This document shows, piece after piece, positions 5,854 through 56,277 of a stretch of 64,000 nt of DNA. Made by a program: the position numbers and the translations under genes. Position 1 is the stretch's first letter. The number at the start of each line of letters is the position of its first letter. The notes below the pieces were generated by a model. It saw nothing but the letters and a program-made list of their open reading frames with translations, was not told where the DNA came from and made no database searches. The DNA is from Eledone cirrhosa (Eukaryota). The stretch is from contig OZ024742.1 in NCBI GenBank assembly GCA_964016885.1, positions 134,726,001-134,790,000 on the forward strand, in the 5' to 3' direction.

Positions 5854-6006
5854 ATATATATATATATAAATTGGAATAAATGCTCTGAAATAGCGATATA
5901 TATGTGAATATAGACATAGAATATTCGAAAATATTCTGTATGTTTATAATAAACATTTTGAAGACCTAATCGCTATAGAATAGAATACGTCACGTATTAC
6001 AATTAG

Positions 6007-6095
6007 ATTCTCGATAAAAGCAAGGGAAGTAATCTACGCGTTTCATTCTTGTTAGAAATCATCAGGACTACATATCCAGTGCTTTTATCGAGAAT
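6007..6095 (-). ncRNA. Type I hammerhead ribozyme (repeated at 6317, 6627, 6937, 7247)
   Basis: Minus strand GUAGUC-CUGAUGA-UUUCUAACAAGAAU-GAAA-CGCG-UA-GAUUAC, with a distal 16-bp perfect stem I extension. Confidence 0.88.
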
Positions 6096-7490
6096 GACAC
6101 AGCTAGAGACTTATAGAATACTTAGCTGTGTACAGGAACTGGTTTGAAAGAGCGGTTGCCGGTCCGGCAGAAATTAGAAATTGGAATAAATGCTCTGAAA
6201 TAGCGATATATATGTGAATATAGACATAGAATATTCGAAAATATTCTGTATGTTTATAATAAACATTTTGAAGACCTAATCGCTATAGAATAGAATACGT
6301 CACGTATTACAATTAGATTCTCGATAAAAGCAAGGGAAGTAATCTACGCGTTTCATTCTTGTTAGAAATCATCAGGACTACATATCCAGTGCTTTTATCG
6401 AGAATGACACAGCTAGAGACTTATAGAATACTTAGCTGTGTACAGGAACTGGTTTGAAAGAGCGGTTGCCGGTCCGGCAGAAATTAGAAATTGGAATAAA
6501 TGCTCTGAAATAGCGATATATATGTGAATATAGACATAGAATATTCGAAAATATTCTGTATGTTTATAATAAACATTTTGAAGACCTAATCGCTATAGAA
6601 TAGAATACGTCACGTATTACAATTAGATTCTCGATAAAAGCAAGGGAAGTAATCTACGCGTTTCATTCTTGTTAGAAATCATCAGGACTACATATCCAGT
6701 GCTTTTATCGAGAATGACACAGCTAGAGACTTATAGAATACTTAGCTGTGTACAGGAACTGGTTTGAAAGAGCGGTTGCCGGTCCGGCAGAAATTAGAAA
6801 TTGGAATAAATGCTCTGAAATAGCGATATATATGTGAATATAGACATAGAATATTCGAAAATATTCTGTATGTTTATAATAAACATTTTGAAGACCTAAT
6901 CGCTATAGAATAGAATACGTCACGTATTACAATTAGATTCTCGATAAAAGCAAGGGAAGTAATCTACGCGTTTCATTCTTGTTAGAAATCATCAGGACTA
7001 CATATCCAGTGCTTTTATCGAGAATGACACAGCTAGAGACTTATAGAATACTTAGCTGTGTACAGGAACTGGTTTGAAAGAGCGGTTGCCGGTCCGGCAG
7101 AAATTAGAAATTGGAATAAATGCTCTGAAATAGCGATATATATGTGAATATAGACATAGAATATTCGAAAATATTCTGTATGTTTATAATAAACATTTTG
7201 AAGACCTAATCGCTATAGAATAGAATACGTCACGTATTACAATTAGATTCTCGATAAAAGCAAGGGAAGTAATCTACGCGTTTCATTCTTTTTAGAAATC
7301 ATCAGGACTACATATCCAGTGCTTTTATCGAGAATGACACAGCTAGAGACAATATTCTATGTCTATATTCACATATATATCGCTATTTCAGAGCATTTAT
7401 TCCAATTTCTAATTTCTGCCGGACCGGCAACCGCTCTTTCAAACCAGTTCCTGTACACAGCTAAGTATTCTATAAGTCTCTAGCTGTGTC

Positions 7491-7579
7491 ATTCTCGATA
7501 AAAGCACTGGATATGTAGTCCTGATGATTTCTAACAAGAATGAAACGCGTAGATTACTTCCCTTGCTTTTATCGAGAAT
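7491..7579 (+). ncRNA. Type I hammerhead ribozyme (inverted unit)
   Basis: CTGATGA 7521-7527, GAAA 7542-7545, GUA site ending 7551. 7515-7520 pairs with 7552-7557; 7491-7506 pairs with 7564-7579. Confidence 0.88.
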
Positions 7580-7677
7580 CTAATTGTAATACGTGACGTA
7601 TTCTATTCTATAGCGATTAGGTCTTCAAAATGTTTATTATAAACATACAGAATATTTTCGAATATTCTATGTCTATA

Positions 7678-8130
<453 letters not shown>

Positions 8131-29195: not shown

Positions 29196-29731
29196 ATTTT
29201 ACTATACGCATTTCAAAAACAAATATCATCCAGGGACGATATTTGCGTTCTCATCAGATAAAATAGGGAGACATGATAAGAAGAAATAACAAGATGGTTA
29301 AAAAAGTTCCATGTACTTTATTATGCGCATTTCAAAAACAAATTCATCCAGGGACGATATTTGCGTTCTCATCAGATAAAATAGGGAGACATGATATGAA
29401 GCTTAAAAAAGACACTTGTGAGCAAGGTAGTGTCTAAACAACATATGATAAATAAATGTAAAAGGATATAGGAGATTGGAAAAAAGGAAAGGAAGGTGAG
29501 AAAAGTAAGGAAGAGGAAGGAAGGAAAGGAATCTCCTATATACTTTTAAATTTATTTATCAAATGTTGTTTAGACACTACCTTGCTCACAAGTGTCTTTT
29601 TTAAGCTTCATATCATGTCTCCCTATTTTATCTGATGAGAACGCAAATATCGTCCCTGGATGAATTTGTTTTTGAAATGCGCATAATAAAGTACATGGAA
29701 CTTTTTTAACCATCTTGTTATTTCTTCTTAT
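29196..29731. mobile_element. pLTR-like partial tandem plus 200-bp foldback carrying three hammerheads
   Basis: HHRs at 29196-29265 (-), 29314-29383 (-) and 29624-29693 (+): UAUUUUAU-CUGAUGA-stem II-GAAA-UGCGCA-UA-AUAAAGUA. Arms 29276-29477 and 29530-29731. Confidence 0.85.
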
Positions 29732-29828
29732 ATATATATACTCCAGTCCAATAAACTGTTGAGTGCTACTTATCCGATATTTGCATTGCTTTATTGTGCT
29801 AAAATAAAACTCACCTCCTACACACACA

Positions 29829-30758: not shown

Positions 30759-30808
<50 letters not shown>

Positions 30809-30811
<3 letters not shown>

Positions 30812-31579
30812 TAAATTAGCGAGAATCGTTTTCAGCTCAGGAATTAACGAAAATCAACGTCCGATATGTGTGGCAAGCGCTCGATGAATCATATGAATCA
30901 GAGCTACAACATACGTTAAGGGCCAAACACACTGAGATGATGGTTAAACATATCATCCGCACAGCCAAAACAAAACGACCAAGTAATTCGGGTCAAACAA
31001 TAAAAATATATGTGTTGATCCTTTCCCGGACCCTGGACTGATGGTAAAATCCAGTATTGGTTTCTGCGACTCCAAATCAGGTACTGTCCGCCTACATAAA
31101 GAATGTTGGGTTCTGGTGAGATGATGAACAAGGCAGTCGTGTTATCAACGGGTTTTGCTCCAAGATGCTATAGATAGTGTGGCTATTACTGACCCCTCGT
31201 GGGATTCAGCAAGGGAGGTAACACCTCTATTAAGCGAATGATTCAGTTGTGTATTATTGCGAGAATGCAAAATATCACAAATCGAATAAAGCTCTCGACA
31301 GAATGGTTAAATATAACAGAGCTATTCAACAGTCAATATAAGTAACTGAAAAAAATCAATAAAATTAACTGCTCAATAGCTAGACTCTGGAGATTAATAC
31401 AAATATAAATTAGCGAGAATCGTTTTCAGCTCAGGAATTAACGAAAATCAACGTCCGATATGTGTGGCAAGCGCTCGATTAATCATATGAATCAGAGCTA
31501 CAACATACGTTAAGGGCCAAACACACTGAGATGATGGTTAAACATATCATCCGCACAGCCAAAACAAAACGACCAAGTA

Positions 31580-31581
<2 letters not shown>
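30809..31581 (-). mobile_element. 1.3-copy tandem of a 594-bp non-coding unit between (TA)n tracts
   Basis: 30809-30987 repeats at 31403-31581 with one mismatch seen. Confidence 0.85.
31025..31152 (-). ncRNA. Hammerhead candidate with U3-A8 core
   Basis: CCCG-UUGAUAA-caCGACU..AGUCGca-GAAA-CC-aaua-CUGGA..UCCAG-GG-UC-CGGG. The two closing pairs of stem II are C/A mismatches. Confidence 0.62.
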
Positions 31582-31640
<59 letters not shown>

Positions 31641-34971: not shown

Positions 34972-37313
34972 GAGGAATATGGGAGCAGGATGTTAAACAT
35001 AATGACCAGGCAATGTGGATTGAGACAGTACAAAAGGAGATTAGTGAACAGGCACACCAACAAACTGATTTGAGAGTATCACAGTGAAACTCTTAAGGGG
35101 CAGGCCAAAAAACTAACCAACTGGAAATCGCCAGGCCCAGATGGTGTGCAGGGGTATTGGATTAAACATATAACATCCCTCCACACGAAACTGACAACCA
35201 TGTTCAATGACTGATTGATGTCAGGTGAGGTACCACGGTGGTTGACAAAAGGTACCACAGTTCTGGTAATGAAAGACCGAATCAAGGGTAATGATGTTAC
35301 CAACTAAAGACCTATCACATGTCTGTCCGTAATGTGTAAACTGTTAAGAAGCATTGTGTCTGAGGAAATCTACCATCACCTCCACACAAACAACTTGTTA
35401 CCGGACGAACAGAAAGGATGCCGAAAGAAGTCCCGTGGTATAAAGGACCAGTTACTTATTGATAAGACGGTAATGAGGAATTGCAAGAGGAGACACACTG
35501 GTCTTGCCATGGGATGGATAGACTACAAAAAGGCATTTGACATGGTGCCTCAGTCTTGGATCACCAAAAGCCTAGAGATCTTCAGGGTGGCAGATAACAT
35601 CAGACAGTTGTTGAGCCAAAGTATGAAGTCCTGGAAAACAGAGTTAACATCGGCTGGAGAATCCTTGGGAGGCGTGAAGATCAAGAGAAGTATCTTCCAG
35701 GGAGATAGTCTGTCCCCTCTGTTGTTTGTACTTGCCCTGATGCCCCTGACTATTATACTGCGAAAAGCGAGAGAAGGAGTTGGGAAAGAGAGAGCTTACC
35801 ATCAAGCTTACCATCGATATTAAGCTCTTCGGGAAGAATGTGAAGGAGTTGGGTGTGCTTGTTGACACTGTCCGTATTTTCAGCAATGATGTATGTATGC
35901 AATTTGGTATTAGAAAGTGTGAAGTCCTTGTGATGAAGAAGGGTAAATTGAGCAGAAACAACGGAATCCATGTACCAACAGGTGAGATGATAAAGGAAAT
36001 TAACACTGAAGAAGAATACACATATTTAGGCGTTCTGGAGGCTAATGACATCAAGAACAAAAAAATGAAGTAATTGATAAGATCTGAATATATTCGGAGA
36101 GAAAGGAGCGTATTAAAATCACATCTGAACAGTAGGAATGCCATAAGTGCAGTAAATTCCCGAGCTGTGTCTATTATTAGGTACAGTGCGGGAATTCTGA
36201 GATGGAATGTTGCTGAACAAAAAGAAATGGATAGTAAGTGTAGGAAGCTATTGACTATCTACAACATGTTCCACAAGAGGAGTGATGTCGATAGACTCTA
36301 CTTAAGGAGTTCTGAGGGTGGAACAGGTCTTATCAGCATAGAGGTCTGTGTTCAGATGGAGAAAAACAAACTACACAAATACGTGACAGATAGTAGGGAG
36401 CCAATGCTCAGAATTGTACTGTAGAAGACAATAGACAAGGGGATGTCCAAGGAGGAAATAACAAGGAGAAAGAGCAACCTTCATGACAAACCCCTTCATA
36501 GTACCTTCTTTGAGAAAACTGAATTCGGAGATCCACAGACATGGAATAGGTTGAAAAGAGGAGACCTTAAAAAGGCTACAGAAGGAATGCTAATGGTTGC
36601 GCAAGAGCAGGCCCACAAAACAAAGTGGCTGAAACACCATATTTACAAGGAGAGGGCTAGCTTACTGTTTAGGATCTCTGGAGAGAGAGAGGAGACTTTG
36701 GCTCACATTGTATCCGACTGTAAACACCTAGCCCAGACTCACTATAATGGCTGGAGACATGATGTGATGGGCAGTGTGATCCACTGGCACCTATGCAATG
36801 TAAACAATTTACCACATTCTGAGAAGTGGTATGTGCATAAGCCAGAGTCGGTGATAGAAAACGATCAGGTGAAGGTGCTGTGGGATTTTAGGATACAGAC
36901 GGACAAGAAACTGGAACACAATAGACCTGACCTGGTTGTTTTGGATAAGGAAAAAAGATGGTGCCTGATTGTGGATATGGCCTGCCCATTCGACATGTGA
37001 GTGCAAGAGAAGGAGAGGGAGAACATTAACCGATACCAGGACTTAAAGAGGGAGGTAAAAAAGGATTTGGAACTGCCATGAAGTCAAAGTGGTCCCGATT
37101 GTCATAGGTGCACTAGGTACTATCTCAAAGAGTTTCCAAGGATGGTTAAAGAAAATTGGCCCAGTCCCGCTTTTTGGAACACTTCAAAAGGCATGATTGC
37201 TGGGAACAGCAAGAACCTTCCGATACGTCCTGAATATCTGAGGCTGAAAGTAGTGGCTTGATATTCATTTCAACAAACTTTCCAGTTAACTAACATCAAT
37301 GACTGAGACTCAA
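34972..37313 (+). mobile_element. R4/Dong-clade RLE LINE, 5'-truncated degenerate copy
   Basis: Colinear with about 39685-42046. RT ([18 protein letters not shown]), RHD and PD..D endonuclease motifs, many stops. Followed by (AAT)n. Confidence 0.92.
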
Positions 37314-37321
37314 TCAACAAC

Positions 37322-37404
<83 letters not shown>

Positions 37405-38399: not shown

Positions 38400-41300
38400 T
38401 TGGGGCCCTTCTCTGCCTGTGTGTTTGTTTGTTTATGTGAGTTCGTATACAGCGTGGTGATAATGCCACACAAGGGCCAAGTGGAATGGCGGATCCACAG
38501 ATGGCTATGTAACCATACATTCGCCAATCCTCGATAAGAGTGTTTAAATATCGAACATAAACAGTTCGAATAACGGTGAAATGGAGACTAGAACGTCATG
38601 TGACAGACTCTCACCCAACAGGTGCCCACTGGCTCAGCAGCAGGAACCTGACTGTCAACCAAATACTGCTGATGTTGGAGGAAGGAGAAGAAGGAAAGGG
38701 GCCAGAAGCAACTGGACGAAAGAATTGAATAGAACTGTTATGCAATGCTACCTGAAAAGTAACCCCAAGGAGAGGGGCTACAGGAGACGGATGCATAACA
38801 TCTGGAACGAGATTGGTTTATTTAAATTAGATGAACAAAAATTGGCCGGGCAGGCTCGGGTAATAAGAACTAATGGGTGGATAAGCGAGCTGGAACTGGA
38901 GGAACTGAGCAGAGAGAATGGCTTGGAGATGGCGGGTGTAGTATGCCAGACAAGCGAGCCAGTGGGAAATGAAGGTGAAGAGGTCCTGAGAACGGAGGAA
39001 CCACCCGAAGCAGACAATGATCTGAATACTGAGATAAATAATACCTGGAACAGAGATACGGCCACTGAGGAGATGGATGCTGACGGGCTAGGACAAGATT
39101 CGGTTGACATCCTAAATTTAGTGGTAGATGAATTGAACAATGATAGTGGGAGACCTATGAACCTAAGATTTGTAGACAGGAAAAAGTTAAAAGAAACAAC
39201 AGCTAAGGTAAACAAAGTCATCCCATACCTTGAGGCGAGGAGCCTTTACCAGTGCAACAATATCCTCAAAGCAACAGCAAATACGGTGAGGAAACTACTT
39301 GGTATAAAAGCGAGAGGAAACAACAGACAAGAAAGAGCAGAGCCGTGGTGGAAGAAGCGACTGAGTGGGCAAATCGGGGAAATGAGAAATGACATAGGAA
39401 AGCTTGAGTCCCACTGAATGGGACACTAAAAAACATAGGCACTAGAAATAGACTGGAAATAAAATACAAAACTAGGAGGAAAAAGCTAAATATTATCATA
39501 GAGGAACTGAAGCAACGCATTGTAGCAAAGAGTGCAAAAATCAGGCGATACGAGAACAGAGTCAGTCAGTATAAACAGAACCGCATGTTCGACAACAACC
39601 AGAAGATGCTGTTTGGACAGCTTGAGGGGAAAGAAAGAGGCAACGACTTGATCCCTGGGGCGGAGCAAACTAAAACATTCTGGAGAGGAATATGGGAGCA
39701 GGATTTTAGACATAATGTCCAGGCAGGGTGAATTGAGACAGTACAGAGGGAGATCGGTGAGCAGGCACAACAACAAACTGATTTGAGTATCACAGTTGAA
39801 ACTCTTAAGGGGCAGGCCAAAAAACTAACCAACTGGAAATCACCAGGCCCAGATGGTGTGCAGGGGTATTGGATTAAACATTTAACATCCCTCCACCCGA
39901 AGCTGACGGCCATGTTCAATGACTGCTTGGTGTCGGGTGAGGTGCCAGAGTGGTTGACAAAAGGTACCACAGTTCTGATAATGAAAGACCGAATCAAGGG
40001 TAATAATGTTACCAACTATAGACCTATCACATGTCTGTTCGTAATGTGGAAACTGTTGACGAGCATTGTGTCTGAGGAAATCTACCATCACCTCCACACA
40101 AACAACTTGTTACCGGACGAACAGAAAGGATGCCGAAAGAAGTCACGTGGTACAAAGGACCAGTTACTTATTGATAAGATGGTAATGGGGAATTGCAGGA
40201 GGAGACACACTGATCTTGCCATGGGATGGATAGACTACAGAAAGGCATTTGACATGGTGCCTCATTATTGGATCACCAAAAGCCTGGAGATCTTCAGGGT
40301 GGCAGATAACATCAGACAGTTGCTAGGCAGGAGTATAGGGTCCTGGGAGACAGAGTTGACATCAACTGGAGTATCCTTGGGAAGCGTGAAGATCAAGAGA
40401 GGTATCTTCCAGGGAGATAGCCTGTCCCCTCTGTTGTTTGTCCTTGCCCTGATGCCCTTGACCATTATGCTGCGAAAAGTGAGAGCAGGATACAAGTTGG
40501 GAAGCGGAGAGCTTACCATCAATCACCTCCTCTTCATGGACGATCTTAAGCTCTTCGGGAAAAGTGAGAAGGAGTTGGATGTGCTTGTTGAAACTGTCCG
40601 TATTTTCAGCAGTGATATATGTATGCAGTTTGGTATTGGTAAATGTGGAGTCATTGTGATGAGGAGGGGTAGGTTGAGCAGAAGTAACGGGATCCAGATA
40701 CCAACAGGTGAGATGATAAAGGAAATTGACTCTGAGGAAGGATACAAGTATTTGGGCGTTCTGGAGGCTGATGGCATAAAGAACAAAAAAATGAAGGAAT
40801 TGTTAAGAACTGAATACATTCGGAGAGTAAGGAGCGTATTGAAGTCACATCTGAACAGCAGAAATGCCATAAGCGCAGTAAATTCCCGAGCTGTGTCTAT
40901 TATTAGGTACAGTGCGGGAATTCTGAGATGGAATGTTGCTGTACAAAAAGAAATGGATAGGAAGACTAGGAAGCTATTGACTATCTAAAACATGTTCCAC
41001 AAGAGGAGTGATGTCGATAGACTCTACCTAAGGAGATCTGAGGGTGGAAGAGGTCTTATCAGCATAGAGGACTGTGTTCAGATGGAGAAAAACAACCTAT
41101 ACAAATACGTGACCTATAGTAAGGAGCCAATACTCAGAACTGTACTGAAGGAGGGGACAGTAGGTCAGGGGATGTCCAAGGAGGAAATAACATCAAGGAG
41201 GAAGAGCAGCCTTAAGGGAAAATCCCTTCATAGTACCTTCTTTGAGAAAACTGAATTTAGAGATCCACAGACATGGAACTGGTTGAGAAGAGGAGACCTC

Positions 41301-42046
41301 AAAAAGGCTACAGAAGGAATGCTAATGGCTGCGCAGGAGCAGGCCCTCAAAACGAAGTGGTTGAAGCACCATATCTACAAGGAGGAGGCTAGCCCACTGT
41401 GCAGGATCTGTGGAGAGAGAGAGGAGACTGTGGCTCACATTGTGTCCGAGTGTAAACACCTAGCCCAGACCCACTATAAGGGCTGGAGACACGATGTGAT
41501 GGGCAGGGTGATCCACTGGCACCTGTGCAAAGTAAACAATTTACCACATTCTGAGAAATGGTATGAGCATAGGCCAGAGGCGGTGATGGAGAACAATCAG
41601 GTGAAGGTGCTGTGGGATTTTAGGGTACAGACGGACAAAAAACTGGAACACAATAGACCTGACCTGGTGGTTGTGGACAAAGAAAAAAGATCGTGCCTGA
41701 TTGTGGATGTGGCCTGCCCGTTCGACACGAGAGTGCAAGAGAAGGAGAGGGAGAAAATTAACCGATACCAGGACCTAAAGTGGGAGGTGAAAAGGATTTG
41801 GAACTGCCATGAAGTCAAAGTGATCCCGATTGTCATAGGCGCACTGGGGACTATCAACAAAGGTTTCCAGGGATGGTTAAAGAAAATCGGCCCCTTCACG
41901 CTTTTTGGAACGCTTCAAAAGGCATGCTTGCTTGGAACAGCAAGAACCCTCCGATACGTCCTGAATATCTGAGGCTGCAGGTAGTGGCTTGATATTCAAT
42001 CCAACGGACTTTCCAGTTAACCAACATCAATGACTGAGATTCAAGG
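38400..42046 (+). mobile_element. R4/Dong-clade RLE LINE, near full length (5' boundary uncertain)
   Basis: Single disrupted ORF, about 75-bp 3'UTR, then (AAT)n at 42047-42111. Confidence 0.93.
38581..41972 (+). pseudogene. RT-zinc knuckle-RLE polyprotein (about 1130 codons) with three lesions
   Basis: N-terminal WTKELN..GYRRRMHNIW, HLLFMDDLKLF, CRIC..H..C, RHD, PDLV..IVDVACP..K. Frameshift near 39415, TGA at 39729, TAA at 40986. Confidence 0.92.
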
Positions 42047-44653: not shown

Positions 44654-46430
44654 CATTTTACTAGCTTCAAGAACGCGTCTACACGACGTGAGAAAGAATC
44701 CCAAAAGGCGGAGGGGGAGATAGTCACGCGATATAACGGTCGAGAAACAGAGCGGTTGGGTGTGGATGCATTCATGTATATGTGTGTGTCCGCATGTATC
44801 TGTGTGTTTCTAGATATATTGTTAATAACTCCCTCTGGTCGAGTAATCTTTGAAGTGTGGTGACTGCTGGAAAGCTGCCATTACTCATACTTCTCGCCTC
44901 CTTCACCACCTCTTCTACGGCTTCGATATAAATACCCCCTCCGCCTCCGTGGTATTTTCTTCGGGGTTATAAGAGGCTTAGCTCTGTTTCTCGACCGTTA
45001 TATCGCGTGACTATCTCCCCCTCCGCCTTTTGATATTCTTTCTCACGTCGTGTAGACGCGTTCTTGAAGCTAGTAAAATGAGGTACCCTCTTGATAAGTC
45101 GGCAGACCTCGCAAAGACTCTATATCTTTATGATGTATTGTTTTTGTTTATGCCACGAAACTACGTAGTCGAGGAATCTTGGAGCAGTTTAGGTATGATA
45201 CATTTTATTACTAATTATATCTAAATGTTTCTTCTCTCTTCATAATGTATCTTTAACTCTGATACTGGTTCAGTCTAATTCAACCGGATTGGTCTGTCCC
45301 AGTCATTCATTGAGCAACATCGGTGAGGTTGGCACCATTAACTCATGGTTGGGTGTGGATACATTCATGTATATGTGTGTGTCCGCATGTATCTGTGTGT
45401 TTCTAAATATATTGTTAATAACTCCCTCTGGTCGAGTAATCTTTGAAGTGTGGTGACTGTTGGAAAGCTGCCATTACTCATACTTCTCGCCTCCTTCACC
45501 ATCTCTTCTACGGCTTCAATATAAATACACCCTCCGCCTCCGTGGTATTTTCTTCGGGGTTATAAGAGGCTTAGCTCTGTTTCTCGACCGTTATATCGCG
45601 TGACTATCTCCCCCTCCGCCTTTTGGGATTCTTTCTCACGTCGTGTAGACGCGTTCTTGAAGCTAGTAAATTGAGGTACCCTCTTGATAAGTCGGCAGAC
45701 CTCGCAAAGACTCTATATCTTTATGATGTATTGTTTTTGTTTATGCCACGAAGCTACGTAGTCGAGGAATCTTGGAGCAGTTTAGGTATGATACATTTTA
45801 TTACTAATTATATCTAAATGTTTCTTCTCTCTTCATAATGTATCTTTAACTCTGATACTGGTTCAGTCTAATTCAACCGGATTGGTCTGTCCCAGTCATT
45901 CATTGAGCAACATCGGTGAGGTTGGCACCATTAACTCACGGTTGGGTGTGGATGCATTCATGTATATGTGTGTGTCCGCATGTATCTGTGTGTTTCTAAA
46001 TATATTGTTAATAACTCCCTCTGGTCGAGTTATCTTTGAAGTGTGGTGACTGCTGGAAAGCTGCCATTACTCATACTTCTCGCATCCTTCACCACCTCTT
46101 CTACGGCTTCGATATAATTACCCCCTCCGCCTCCGTGATATTTTCATAGGGGTTATAAGAGGCTTAGCTCTGTTTCTCGACCATTATATCGCGTGACTAT
46201 CTCCCCCTCCGCCTTTTGGGATTCTTTCTCACGTCGTGTAGACGCGTTCTTGAAGCTAGTAAAATGAGGTACCCTCTTGATAAGTCGGCAGACCTCGCAA
46301 AGACTCTATATCTTTATGATGTATTGTTTTTGTTTATGCCACGAAACTACGTAGTCGAGGAATCTTGGAGCAGTTTAGGTATGATACATTTTATTACTAA
46401 TTATATCTAAATGTTTCTTCTCTCTTCATA

Positions 46431-46436
<6 letters not shown>
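44654..46436 (+). mobile_element. 593-bp tandem array (2.8 units) with 100-bp 5' inversion; retrozyme-like
   Basis: Units start at 44754, 45347 and 45940. 44654-44753 is the inverse of 44981-45080. (TA)n at the 3' end and about 130 bp upstream. Confidence 0.9.
45081..45179 (+). ncRNA. Type I hammerhead with U3-A8 core (copies 45674-45772, 46267-46365)
   Basis: AGGT-ac-CCTC, TTGATAA (45091-45097), GTcGGCA..46 nt..TGCCAC, GAAA (45157-45160), CTACGTAG, TC, GAGG-a-ATCT. Confidence 0.78.
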
Positions 46437-46593: not shown

Positions 46594-46734
46594 GAGTTTA
46601 TGTTGGTTGTATACCAACACCTCAGTATGCAGGCTGGAGCACTCGACGAAGTGCGCAGGTTGGTTTGGTTACTCCGGAGTAGTGTAAATCAAGTTAAATA
46701 AAAGTCAAATGATTAAAATTTAGCTTCGTTTATT

Positions 46735-46789
46735 ACTGCTATATATATTTCAGTGACAGCCATCTTTGGCTGTGACCTCTTCAGGCAGT
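46735..46789 (-). ncRNA. Type I hammerhead in pLTR
   Basis: Mirror of 49293-49347. Confidence 0.9.
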
Positions 46790-47984
46790 TTGAATTAGTA
46801 TGGTATAGACAAGTACATATGTTGTTAGGGTGTATGATATTGTCAATACTCTGATATGCCCAGTTCCTTGTTGGGTTGTTAATTCACTGGGGAACTGGAG
46901 TCATATGAATTCAAACAAACGAATTTTAGTGTCACAGGTCCCCTTCTCCTCTCATTGGTCAGTTATTAGTGTTGTCATTGTTGGAGTTAGCTTAAAAATT
47001 GATAAAATGGTAGAAGGGACAAGGTGTTGAAGGAACAAAATATCAAAAAATGTGTCAAACTTCCCATTGTTCAGTTCTGAGAGCATTCCTCAGTCAGAAG
47101 TCTATAGAATTCTTTCTGGGTTGAGGCTCCCTGTAGTGTTTATGCCTGCTATTGTTCAGTACATTTGACCTCCACCATTATTTTGGTACTGTTGTTGTTG
47201 TAGTGGTCAGCTTATATCTTGCTGCTGCTAACAATTTAGAAGTATTCAGTTTGTGTTTTCTCTTCATCCCACCCGCCACCATCGTAGTGGTGGTGGCGGG
47301 GGGTGGGTGGGGTTATTTCATGTATATGAAGAAATATAAGGCAATAAATGAAGAAAACAGAAGATAAATAAATAATATAATAAAATAAAATAATTAATAT
47401 AATTTGTGTAATTTGAAAATAAATAAATAAATAGAGAATAAAGAATAAAGAGTAAATGAGAGATTGGTGAAAAAGTAATGATAATGTATATGGAGAAGTG
47501 AGAAATAATGTAGGATAAAGTGTGTGTGTGTGTGTGCTATAACCAATCTCAAGGTCAGAATATGTTGGATAGATTGGTATGATACAAGATGTTAAGATGA
47601 GATATTCAATGTGTTTGTGTTATAATCTATCTCAACTTAAAATAAATATAAATATAAGGTTATACAGTGAAGAGGGCAGAAAACAAATAACAAATTAATA
47701 TAGAGAAATCAAGATTTAAGATTGGAACTTTAAAGTCAGAAATCTGGTAAATTAAAAGTGTTTGTGTTATAGATGTTGGCCAGATTATTATGGCTGTGTC
47801 CGATTCTGTCTCTAGGCTATCATGGTGTCTGCTCCGCCTGGGTTGTTCCCTATGGCTTGAGGGGAGTTCACAACCTAGGGTGTTGTAATTGCCCATATAG
47901 CTTGAGGGAGGTCTGGCCGAGAGGTGTTTTCATGTTCTGTAGAAGTCCCTATAGCTTGAGGGGAGTTCACATCTTCTTGTGTTG

Positions 47985-48520
47985 CTACTGTCCATATATT
48001 TTGAGAAAGGTCCCGGCTCTAAGGTGTCTGCATGTCCCGAAGAAGTCGGTTCTGAGGTTTATCAGGCCGCTTCCTCCTCTTAGTATCTCGAGGGTCTCGT
48101 TCAGGCATAGTTTGCATATGCAAGATCCCCCTTTATCGGGTGGTACTTTCCTGATTATGTACCAGGCCAGAGAGTATGGGGTCCTGTCCAGCTTAAGCTT
48201 CCAGATCAGGTCGGAGAGAGCTGTGCTTTTCCTTTTGGCCTCCTTCTTGAATGAATGGCGATGGTTGTACCAGCGGTCCTTAAAGCTCGTTGATGTGGCT
48301 CCTATGTAGAGGTGTTCGGAGTTGGGGGTTTTAACCCTACAACCGTACACTATGTTCTTCTTGAGACATTCATTACCAAGGGGGCATGATTCGGGGTTTC
48401 TACAGTTGCAGAGGGTGGGCGGCCTCTGCGTGCTTAGATTAGGGTTCTCATTATGTGTTACATGTTGGTCTTCCCCCATGCTCGGTGGGGGGTCCTTGGG
48501 TCTGTTTGTGTTTCTTGATC
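47985..48520 (-). CDS. PLE GIY-YIG endonuclease domain (uninterrupted fragment)
   Basis: CNC..CPLGNECL..IVY..YIGAT..FKDRWYNH..CKLCLNE..LIN..CRH. Confidence 0.85.
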
Positions 48521-49292
48521 CATAACCAAGGCAGTGGTGAAGAGTGTCTCGGACAGGATCTCCAGCCTGTCCGCAAGTAAGGAAATATTCAACAACCACG
48601 CGGAATATTACAACGCAGCTCTAAAGACCCAAGGACCCCCCACCGAGCATGGGGGAAGACCATTTTCAAATTACACAAATTATATTAATTATTTTATTTT
48701 ATTATATTATTTATTTATCTTCTGTTTTCTTCATTTATTGCCTTATATTTCTTCATATACATGAAATAACCCCACCCACCCCCCGCCACCACCACTACGA
48801 TGGTGGCGGGTGGGATGAAGAGAAAACACAAACTGAATACTTCTAAATTGTTAGCAGCAGCAAGATATAAGCTGACCACTACAACAACAACAGTACCAAA
48901 ATAATGGTGGAGGTCAAATGTACTGAACAATAGCAGGCATAAACACTACAGGGAGCCTCACCCCAGAAAGAATTCTATAGACTTCTGACTGAGGAATGCT
49001 CTCAGAACTGAACAATGGGAAGTTTGACACATTTTTTGATATTTTGTTCCTTCAACACCTTGTCCCTTCTACCATTTTATCAATTTTTAAGCTAACTCCA
49101 ACAATGACAACACTAATAACTGACCAATGAGAGGAGAAGGGGACCTGTGACACTAAAATTCGTTTGTTTGAATTCATATGACTCCAGTTCCCCAGTGAAT
49201 TAACAACCCAACAAGGAACTGGGCATATCAGAGTATTGACAATATCATACACCTAAACAACATATGTACTTGTCTATACCATACTAATTCAA

Positions 49293-49347
49293 ACTGCCTG
49301 AAGAGGTCACAGCCAAAGATGGCTGTCACTGAAATATATATAGCAGT
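49293..49347 (+). ncRNA. Type I hammerhead in inverted pLTR
   Basis: ACTGC-CTGAAGA-GGTcACAGCCA aaga TGGCTGTcACT-GAAA-TATATA-TA-GCAGT. Confidence 0.9.
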
Positions 49348-49391
49348 AATAAACGAAGCTAAATTTTAATCATTTGACTTTTATTTAACTT

Positions 49392-50860
<1,469 letters not shown>

Positions 50861-54444: not shown

Positions 54445-54524
54445 TATTGCCTCGTCTGACGAACGAATGAAGTCGTTTATTTCGTATTCGCCTCATTCGG
54501 GAAACCTCTGGTAATGAGGTAATA
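54445..54524 (+). ncRNA. Type I hammerhead with 11-bp stem I
   Basis: TATTGCCTCGT-CTGACGA-aCGAATGA..TCATTCGg-GAAA-CCTCTGG-TA-ATGAGGTAATA. Confidence 0.82.
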
Positions 54525-56071: not shown

Positions 56072-56186
56072 GTATTTTAACGATAGTTATAGCTCTGATA
56101 TATCCAAATTATTGAGCCCTCTGCCACACATGCCTGATATTATTTATCGTCATTTCATGGGCTGATATTCCGATTCTCGATTATTC

Positions 56187-56277
<91 letters not shown>

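Follow-up and report, generated by a model that had tools for sequence, protein, structure and literature searches.

A (TA)n-inserted, protein-free repeat of Eledone cirrhosa, probably a retrozyme, carries a predicted pseudoknotted hammerhead that likely cuts in vivo

The (TA)n tracts at about 31 kb in a 64,000-nucleotide stretch of Eledone cirrhosa DNA (the window) flank a short repeat of slightly more than one unit, in which a preliminary description had proposed an unusual hammerhead ribozyme. We asked what this element is, whether its ribozyme is real and what form of RNA its copies were made from. The element belongs to a short protein-free mobile repeat with a predicted self-cutting RNA, of which the genome has hundreds of recent copies. 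We consider it probable that this 5′-truncated, 1.3-unit copy is a retrozyme that was moved by a borrowed Penelope-like reverse transcriptase and endonuclease, and that its predicted pseudoknotted hammerhead cuts in vivo. The anatomy of the family, the distributions of its ends and the covariation of its structure are demonstrated below; catalysis, the identity of the enzyme and the form of the template are what we infer.

A truncated partial tandem and its family

The insertion lies on the minus strand (30809..31581; 1.30 units), with its 3′ end at 30809 and its 5′ truncation at 31581. It comprises one complete, non-coding unit of 594 bp (30809..31402; read as a circle, its longest ATG frame is 39 aa), preceded by a 5′ partial copy (31403..31581; unit positions 416–594) that lacks the hammerhead. 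The locus therefore has a single ribozyme, from which we reason that two cuts could not free an RNA of unit length from it. Unit positions are numbered from 31402 along the minus strand, so that the predicted cut falls at 374|375 and the 5′ end of the window copy at 416, an ordinary truncation point. Target (TA)n tracts, to which no strand is assigned, adjoin the 3′ junction (30761..30813) and the 5′ junction (31580..31640). The proposed 594-bp unit with a 179-bp terminal redundancy between such tracts was borne out: the period is 594 and 178 of 179 redundant positions are identical, with a single G/T difference at 30886/31480. At the fixed 3′ end, a tail kept across subfamilies (30809..30860, minus strand), which closes with an AU-rich stretch, is the putative start of reverse transcription. 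A diverged 3′ fragment of the same superfamily lies on the plus strand at window positions 56077–56190.

Searching the 3.0-Gb, microsatellite-rich animal genome with the unit returned 3648 candidates, and all 40 that were scored were 98–100% identical to it. A 3′-proximal 22-mer had 352 exact matches, against 0 for its control, and the median divergence among 58 copies was 0.9%. In the flank of one family copy we found a subfamily of about 73% identity; a superfamily motif common to two subfamilies had at least 2,586 matches, against 1 for the control, and related units measure 572–626 bp, one deleted copy aside. Another family copy was seen inserted directly at the 3′ end of a 604-bp subfamily copy (L089:796-2368). 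Three contig runs of unrecorded type from one sample yielded sequence variants only.

End statistics were taken from the 78 insertions behind the first 100 of the 352 matches listed. Copies of up to one unit predominate (54), followed by 1.x units (23) and a single copy of 3.2 units, and only two loci hold two complete ribozymes. By contrast with the variable 5′ ends, the 3′ end is constant: of 49 loci retrieved with anchors some 200 nt from it, 48 end at position 594, and no second 3′ end was seen 30–40 bp away; the 179-bp redundancy is therefore a truncation point and not an LTR. At the AU-rich end, three registers (33, 30 and 12 junctions) account for all but 6 of the 3′ junctions, a pattern which suggests that a TA end primed on the AU-rich terminus. 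In the commonest register an A replaces an internal G, which we interpret as the outcome expected of a TA primer overwriting that G.

The predicted hammerhead and its conservation

The hammerhead that had been claimed, with a U3-A8 core, a 77-nt stem II domain, an extended stem III and a GUC site, is present as described, on the minus strand. From 5′ to 3′ it consists of a pseudoknot strand, GAGCAA (31155..31160), with predicted pairing to 31131–31126; the 5′ strand of stem I, CCCG (31149..31152); the core UUGAUAA (31142..31148), a U3-A8 variant in which N7 is free; the enlarged stem II domain of 77 nt (31065..31141), in which basal C·A and A·C mismatches are followed by 5 + 2 bp, the pseudoknot 3′ strand UUGUUC (31126..31131) and inner hairpins; the GAAA core segment (G12–A15.1; 31061..31064); an extended stem III of 3 bp, a bulge and a 7-bp hairpin (31030..31060); the GUC triplet (31031–31029; cut-site feature 31028..31031), with the predicted cut between 31029 and 31028; and the 3′ strand of stem I, CGGG (31025..31028). 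The type I order, the three helices and the core consensus (GAAA, UH) are thus all there, in U3-A8 form. Of 3000 dinucleotide shuffles of the unit, a loose layout descriptor, composed after the motif had been seen, picked out 18, a number that fell to 2 when equal stem quality was required; the same approach detected no plus-strand hammerhead in the unit. Rfam gave no hammerhead match on the element at E ≤ 10, its output being microsatellite-driven noise only, and the window's canonical minimal hammerheads were likewise missing from the 150 of 168 matches listed.

Whether the two C/A mismatches that close stem II are repaired elsewhere in the family had been raised as a check, and they are not: C·A followed by A·C is found in 30 of 30 close copies, and in a wider sample the four mismatch letters are unchanged in 42–43 of 43 and in 46 of 47 copies. 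The paired 10.1–11.1 position closing stem II is accordingly absent in the window family. The domain itself measures 78 nt in 28 of 30 copies, the 77 nt of the window reflecting the loss of one G from that copy. Because the mismatches are family-wide, the family formally has the consensus without stem II pairing that had been named as counting against a ribozyme; the ribozyme nevertheless stands, on account of the covariation and the cut-site footprint described below, and it survives in the family with its mismatches. Among superfamily relatives (91 loci examined, 75 with the 5′ half, a few rows being overlapping loci), 62 of 75 cores read UUGANAA, the first stem II position is always N·A (the A was set by the search pattern and was also met in pattern-independent copies), and the second is G-C in 65 of 75 and A·C in 8 of 75. 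The window family thus has one conserved and one derived mismatch. Within it, N7 is the sole core position with recurrent change (of 43 copies, 27 have U and 16 have A), the remaining core and stem I 5′ positions being invariant. One subfamily (L161, L183, L215) has spread although it combines C3 with A8 (4 of 75 cores), a mismatch that should impair cleavage.

Across a 65-row alignment of the whole structure, 88.4% of cells are paired, and 101 double changes were counted against 47.6 in shuffles (reached in 0 of 500), with two of five covariation measures not above shuffles and the shuffles ignoring relatedness. The predicted pseudoknot joins six bases 5′ of stem I to six within the stem II domain. 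At least 5 bp form in 48 of 56 distinct strand pairs, with a mean of 5.9 versus 5.5 after partner swapping (1 of 1000); 85% of its cells are paired and three of its six base pairs show double changes. The strands are GAGCAA/UUGUUC in the window family and GAACGA/UCGUUC or GGACGG/CCGUCC in relatives. When folded without the pseudoknot, the hammerhead lies 2–12 kcal/mol above the ensemble in four natural copies, and the pseudoknot duplex contributes about −4 kcal/mol in folding. About 35 nt past the cut, a conserved GACCCG (window 30988–30995; unit about 408–413) could pair with the GGGUC cleavage strand; the modelled hammerhead fraction drops when this region is included, and such pairing may damp cleavage. 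A 7-nt complement of the core just past the cut site was set aside as a weak lead, being uncompensated in the N7 = A subfamily.

The preliminary description had also linked the element to an array at 44.7 kb of nearly equal unit length and little similar sequence, as two members of a size-constrained class of ribozyme circles. The periods, 594 and 593, do lie within 1 nt, and no phase-locked similarity was found (11 of 100 shuffles reach the global alignment score); under three scorings, 10, 0 and 50 of 100 shuffles reach the local score, and the best local match is out of phase and AT-rich. The shared ribozyme topology held up, with a 6-bp pseudoknot strand, a 2-nt linker, a 4-bp stem I, a U3-A8 core and an enlarged stem II in both families; a tight size limit did not, since units of 572–626 bp in the superfamily make 594 versus 593 a coincidence in a loose range near 600. 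In the 44.7-kb family, (U/C)GAGGU pairs with ACCUCG in 53 of 53 cores, overlapping loci included. It departs from the 594-bp family in several respects: stem III is short and palindromic, the closing pair is G-C, and multimers, inverted arms and two 3′ ends occur. Its window copy (44654–46436; 593-bp U3-A8 unit, 1867 candidates) has an inverted 5′ arm of 100 bp, with 3′ ends fixed at two sites, and its partial copies, read by eye, have no obvious pile-up at their own cut site.

Other repeats in the window also carry hammerheads. A 310-bp tandem array of 4.8 units with an inverted arm (5865–7690) has a canonical minimal type I hammerhead in each unit, and further canonical C3-G8 type I hammerheads occur in other repeats at 29198–29740, 52236, 54456 and 55777, of which that at 54456 recurs adjoining Penelope-like endonuclease copies. 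A non-LTR element flanked by (AAT)n, which we take to be R4/Dong-like, occupies 38548–41972, with an older, 90% identical neighbour at 34972–37381.

Insertion ends, template and enzyme

If the ribozyme cuts the RNA that is copied, 5′ ends should bear its mark. At the 78 loci, 11 ends fall at unit positions 373–381, against 1.25 expected from a uniform spread, and 13 at 373–384 (about one copy in six), with 1 at 361–372 and 0 at 385–391; the interval edges were picked after the data had been seen, the cut site itself having been predicted beforehand. Restricting the count to the 46 ends without TA microhomology again leaves 11 at 373–381. A genome-wide junction pattern, in which a TA run lies within 30 nt upstream of position 376, gave 31 loci from the first 100 of 119 matches listed: nine begin at C375, six at G376, two at 373–374, and 14 are spread over the 27 positions 346–372. 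This excess at C375/G376 has P of about 1e-10. At a control anchor at 337, ten junctions from nine loci cover about 31 positions, and one adjoins the anchor. A separate pattern retrieved 46 loci starting at 375–385, many of them on TA-like letters at 382–384, where many ends coincide with TA microhomology. The letters at the junctions vary from copy to copy, and cut-site ends come from both the 594 and the 597 subfamily, which argues against a single master copy. Replication in older subfamilies was weak (second-pass ends: two at 0 to +9 and seven at +18 to +29, with eight insertions beyond the site), and a loose cut-site junction pattern in other subfamilies was uninformative (118 matches versus 470 for the control). 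In one locus, L085, a 5′ inversion has an inverted piece ending exactly at the predicted cut (unit 375).

The pile-up might instead reflect an enzyme that stalls on reaching the 3′ edge of the folded ribozyme, or that anneals through A/T-rich microhomology, the ribozyme being weakened or dead from its double mismatch. The many ends on A- or TA-rich letters at 379–384, immediately beyond stem I, the weakness of the footprint in older subfamilies and the failure of eight of nine Xenopus retrozymes to cleave in vitro, as given in passages of 10.64898/2026.07.22.740005, speak for this. Against it, 15 of the 31 junctions are on C375 or G376, which lie within stem I and lack TA microhomology, the ends drop sharply 5′ of the scissile bond in the same set, and the core is invariant apart from N7; we regard stalling or annealing as quite improbable. 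That the ribozyme cuts in living cells, and that the cut RNA is then pasted into the genome, is likely, and the footprint favours cut linear RNA as the template of copies that start at the cut site. On balance we lean towards the fuller statement that the genome records in vivo cutting by an atypical hammerhead missed by Rfam, with roughly one in five reverse-transcription passes ending at the scissile bond.

The form of the remaining template is less clear-cut. As 51 of 78 copies cross the cut site, most templates were intact there. Stops on the first pass leave 220-nt copies and those on the second 814-nt copies, with 13 stops in 69 passes. An early excess of second-pass stops (8 of 13 versus 5 of 56; Fisher P = 0.0001) did not replicate, the rate being 5 of 31 outside contigs 1–2 and 10 of 46 overall, as equal hazard would predict, and a nicked-circle model was therefore dropped. 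Equal stop rates fit linear multimers with per-ribozyme cutting near 0.2, or circles whose junction stalls the enzyme. For copies that pass one cut site only to end at the following one, linear multimeric RNA is the simplest explanation. Tandem copies within an insertion carry the same subfamily variants (12 shared departures), so that a monomer stage, by circle or template jump, was probably at least occasional.

A reading to which we give a substantial minority of our confidence is that all copies derive from a closed RNA circle copied for one to three rounds, with a ligation scar (for example, a 2′-5′ bond) that stalls the enzyme equally at each pass. It accommodates the crossing of the cut site by the 51 copies, the shared variants of the tandem copies, the rarity of loci with two complete ribozymes and the near-equal stop frequencies of both passes, and circles have been shown for coral, mussel and axolotl retrozymes (in passages of PMC7229834). 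A plain closed circle is endless, however, and predicts no stops at 375, so that the scar is an added assumption; near-private variants common to both tandem copies are few (2 versus 95 unshared differences); and unprocessed RNA was the dominant template in vitro in the passages of PMC11167929. Folded as a circle, moreover, the window unit beats its shuffles by a small margin only (z of −1.4 in the sense and −0.6 in the antisense orientation, and −2.1 for L003, a natural majority-type copy; 22 shuffles). Viroid-like replicons have ribozymes on both strands and a rod-like fold, neither of which was seen in the window unit with the hammerhead descriptor, Rfam and circular folding.

With linear multimers as the preferred template, a source locus with at least two units would be transcribed, and a borrowed enzyme would nick a (TA)n tract, prime 220 nt downstream of the ribozyme, at the one fixed AU-rich site, and copy towards the RNA 5′ end, falling off at random. 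On each pass of a ribozyme site about one template in five would already be cut and copying would stop, to leave the 220-nt or 814-nt products, the majority of templates being uncut or re-ligated at that site.

Partial-tandem insertions, 5′ truncation and a microsatellite target are traits of non-autonomous Penelope-like elements, and all three are found here. A partner bearing superfamily sequence was not found among 75 Penelope-like loci of two lineages, retrieved with two endonuclease queries. The superfamily matches in two of these loci (L293, L300) look to be independent insertions into TA tracts, and that in a third (L295) is truncated by the edge of the locus. The near-identical copies of one young Penelope-like family (L331–L338), which has open frames of 777 aa, contain no canonical hammerhead by descriptor, and Penelope-like fragments that include GIY-YIG remnants and an inverted repeat of 735 bp (99.5%) lie between TA tracts at window positions 46686–50585. 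Inverted 5′ arms are usual in Penelope-like insertions but nearly absent here, with one clear case among the copies examined (L085); the second 3′ end 30–40 bp away, another mark of such elements, is likewise lacking. A LINE-type enzyme that recognizes the conserved 3′ hairpin, in the fashion of a SINE, could also move the family; this is unlikely, in our estimate. The single fixed 3′ end, the conserved 3′ tail, the near absence of inverted arms and the lack of a partner among the 75 Penelope-like loci would suit it, whereas partial tandems longer than a unit, internal priming and (TA)n targeting are Penelope-like traits (in passages of PMC8557442 and PMC11167929) and the genome is rich in Penelope-like elements, some with 777-aa open frames. 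That a hammerhead-like motif arose by chance in an ordinary LTR, local duplication or satellite we find scarcely credible, in spite of the silence of Rfam: this reading is refuted by dispersed copies of variable redundancy length, superfamily cores and a structure that covaries across subfamilies of about 73% identity, and the shuffle controls also stand against it. LTR and local duplication were the alternatives named in the preliminary description.

Relation to known systems

The hammerhead's role in the Penelope and retrozyme cycle is a question on which this family gives a counted footprint of cut templates, and it makes the choice between circle and linear multimer directly testable. The family also defines a pseudoknotted U3-A8 form with core-adjacent mismatches that exists in thousands of copies and is rejected by standard filters. 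If our reading is true, ribozyme-cut linear multimers are real integration templates for Penelope-type machinery, and insertion ends provide an assay-free, nucleotide-resolution readout of ribozyme activity for each subfamily. The R2 retrotransposon, an autonomous site-specific element, has a self-cleaving, HDV-like 5′ ribozyme that sets the full-length 5′ end. Here too a ribozyme defines the 5′ end of copies, as a minority stop.

Both the retrozyme class and the U3-A8 core are already published (in the passages of PMC7229834 and PMC4209133). For the pseudoknotted, mismatch-bearing form and the counted cut-site footprint we found no precedent; neither the window family nor a mapping of insertion ends to the cut of a hammerhead is described in the literature covered, mainly open-access main texts, and the supplementary alignments of PMC4209133 and PMC3088659 could hold a U3-A8 mismatch variant.

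The family consists of non-coding head-to-tail units with one type I hammerhead each and no LTR, the features by which animal non-LTR retrozymes are recognized; a further one, two or more ribozymes at some loci, holds for 2 of 78 loci, the window copy having one. According to passages of PMC7229834 and 10.64898/2026.07.22.740005, those retrozymes are likewise non-coding, low in GC, head-to-tail and without LTRs, with units of 51–972 bp, a range that includes ours. Like animal retrozymes moved by Penelope-like elements, the family combines one fixed 3′ end, placed in (TA)n, with 5′ ends that vary. It differs from the retrozymes of those passages in its dispersed copies, mostly of 0.1–1.9 units, rather than arrays, its U3-A8 core, its long rather than short palindromic stem III and its 76–81-nt stem II domain with a pseudoknot; insertion ends mapped to the cut site are not reported in those passages and are counted here.

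Among the hammerheads in the terminal repeats of Penelope-like elements (passages of PMC4209133), covariation of U3 with A8 is described in Schistosoma. Those terminal-repeat hammerheads share a helix I of 4–5 bp, an extra nucleotide after A9 and proposed copying beyond one unit; in the window family, unlike them, an unpaired A precedes G12, the G10.1-C11.1 pair is missing and a large helix III, given there for fungal and protist Penelope-like elements, occurs in an animal. Poseidon of Anolis (passages of PMC11167929) similarly starts reverse transcription internally, downstream of its hammerhead, at AT-rich targets, which shows internal priming at AT-rich DNA for a Penelope-like element. Poseidon has two start sites, needs no cleavage in vitro and has no RNA-seq reads ending at the cut; the window family differs in its one start site and its genomic record of cut templates.

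The closest structural parallel is with pseudoknot-stabilized hammerheads, in which, in the passages of PMC3088659, a 6-bp pseudoknot between the stem I and stem II sides replaces loop–loop contacts. About 40% of the examples given there use such a pseudoknot, which is needed for fast cleavage in other hammerheads, and a U·U mismatch at 10.1–11.1 is tolerated. The filter applied in that study rejected mispairs adjoining the core, and an A·A or C·A mismatch together with a U3-A8 core, absent from those passages, is what the window superfamily has.
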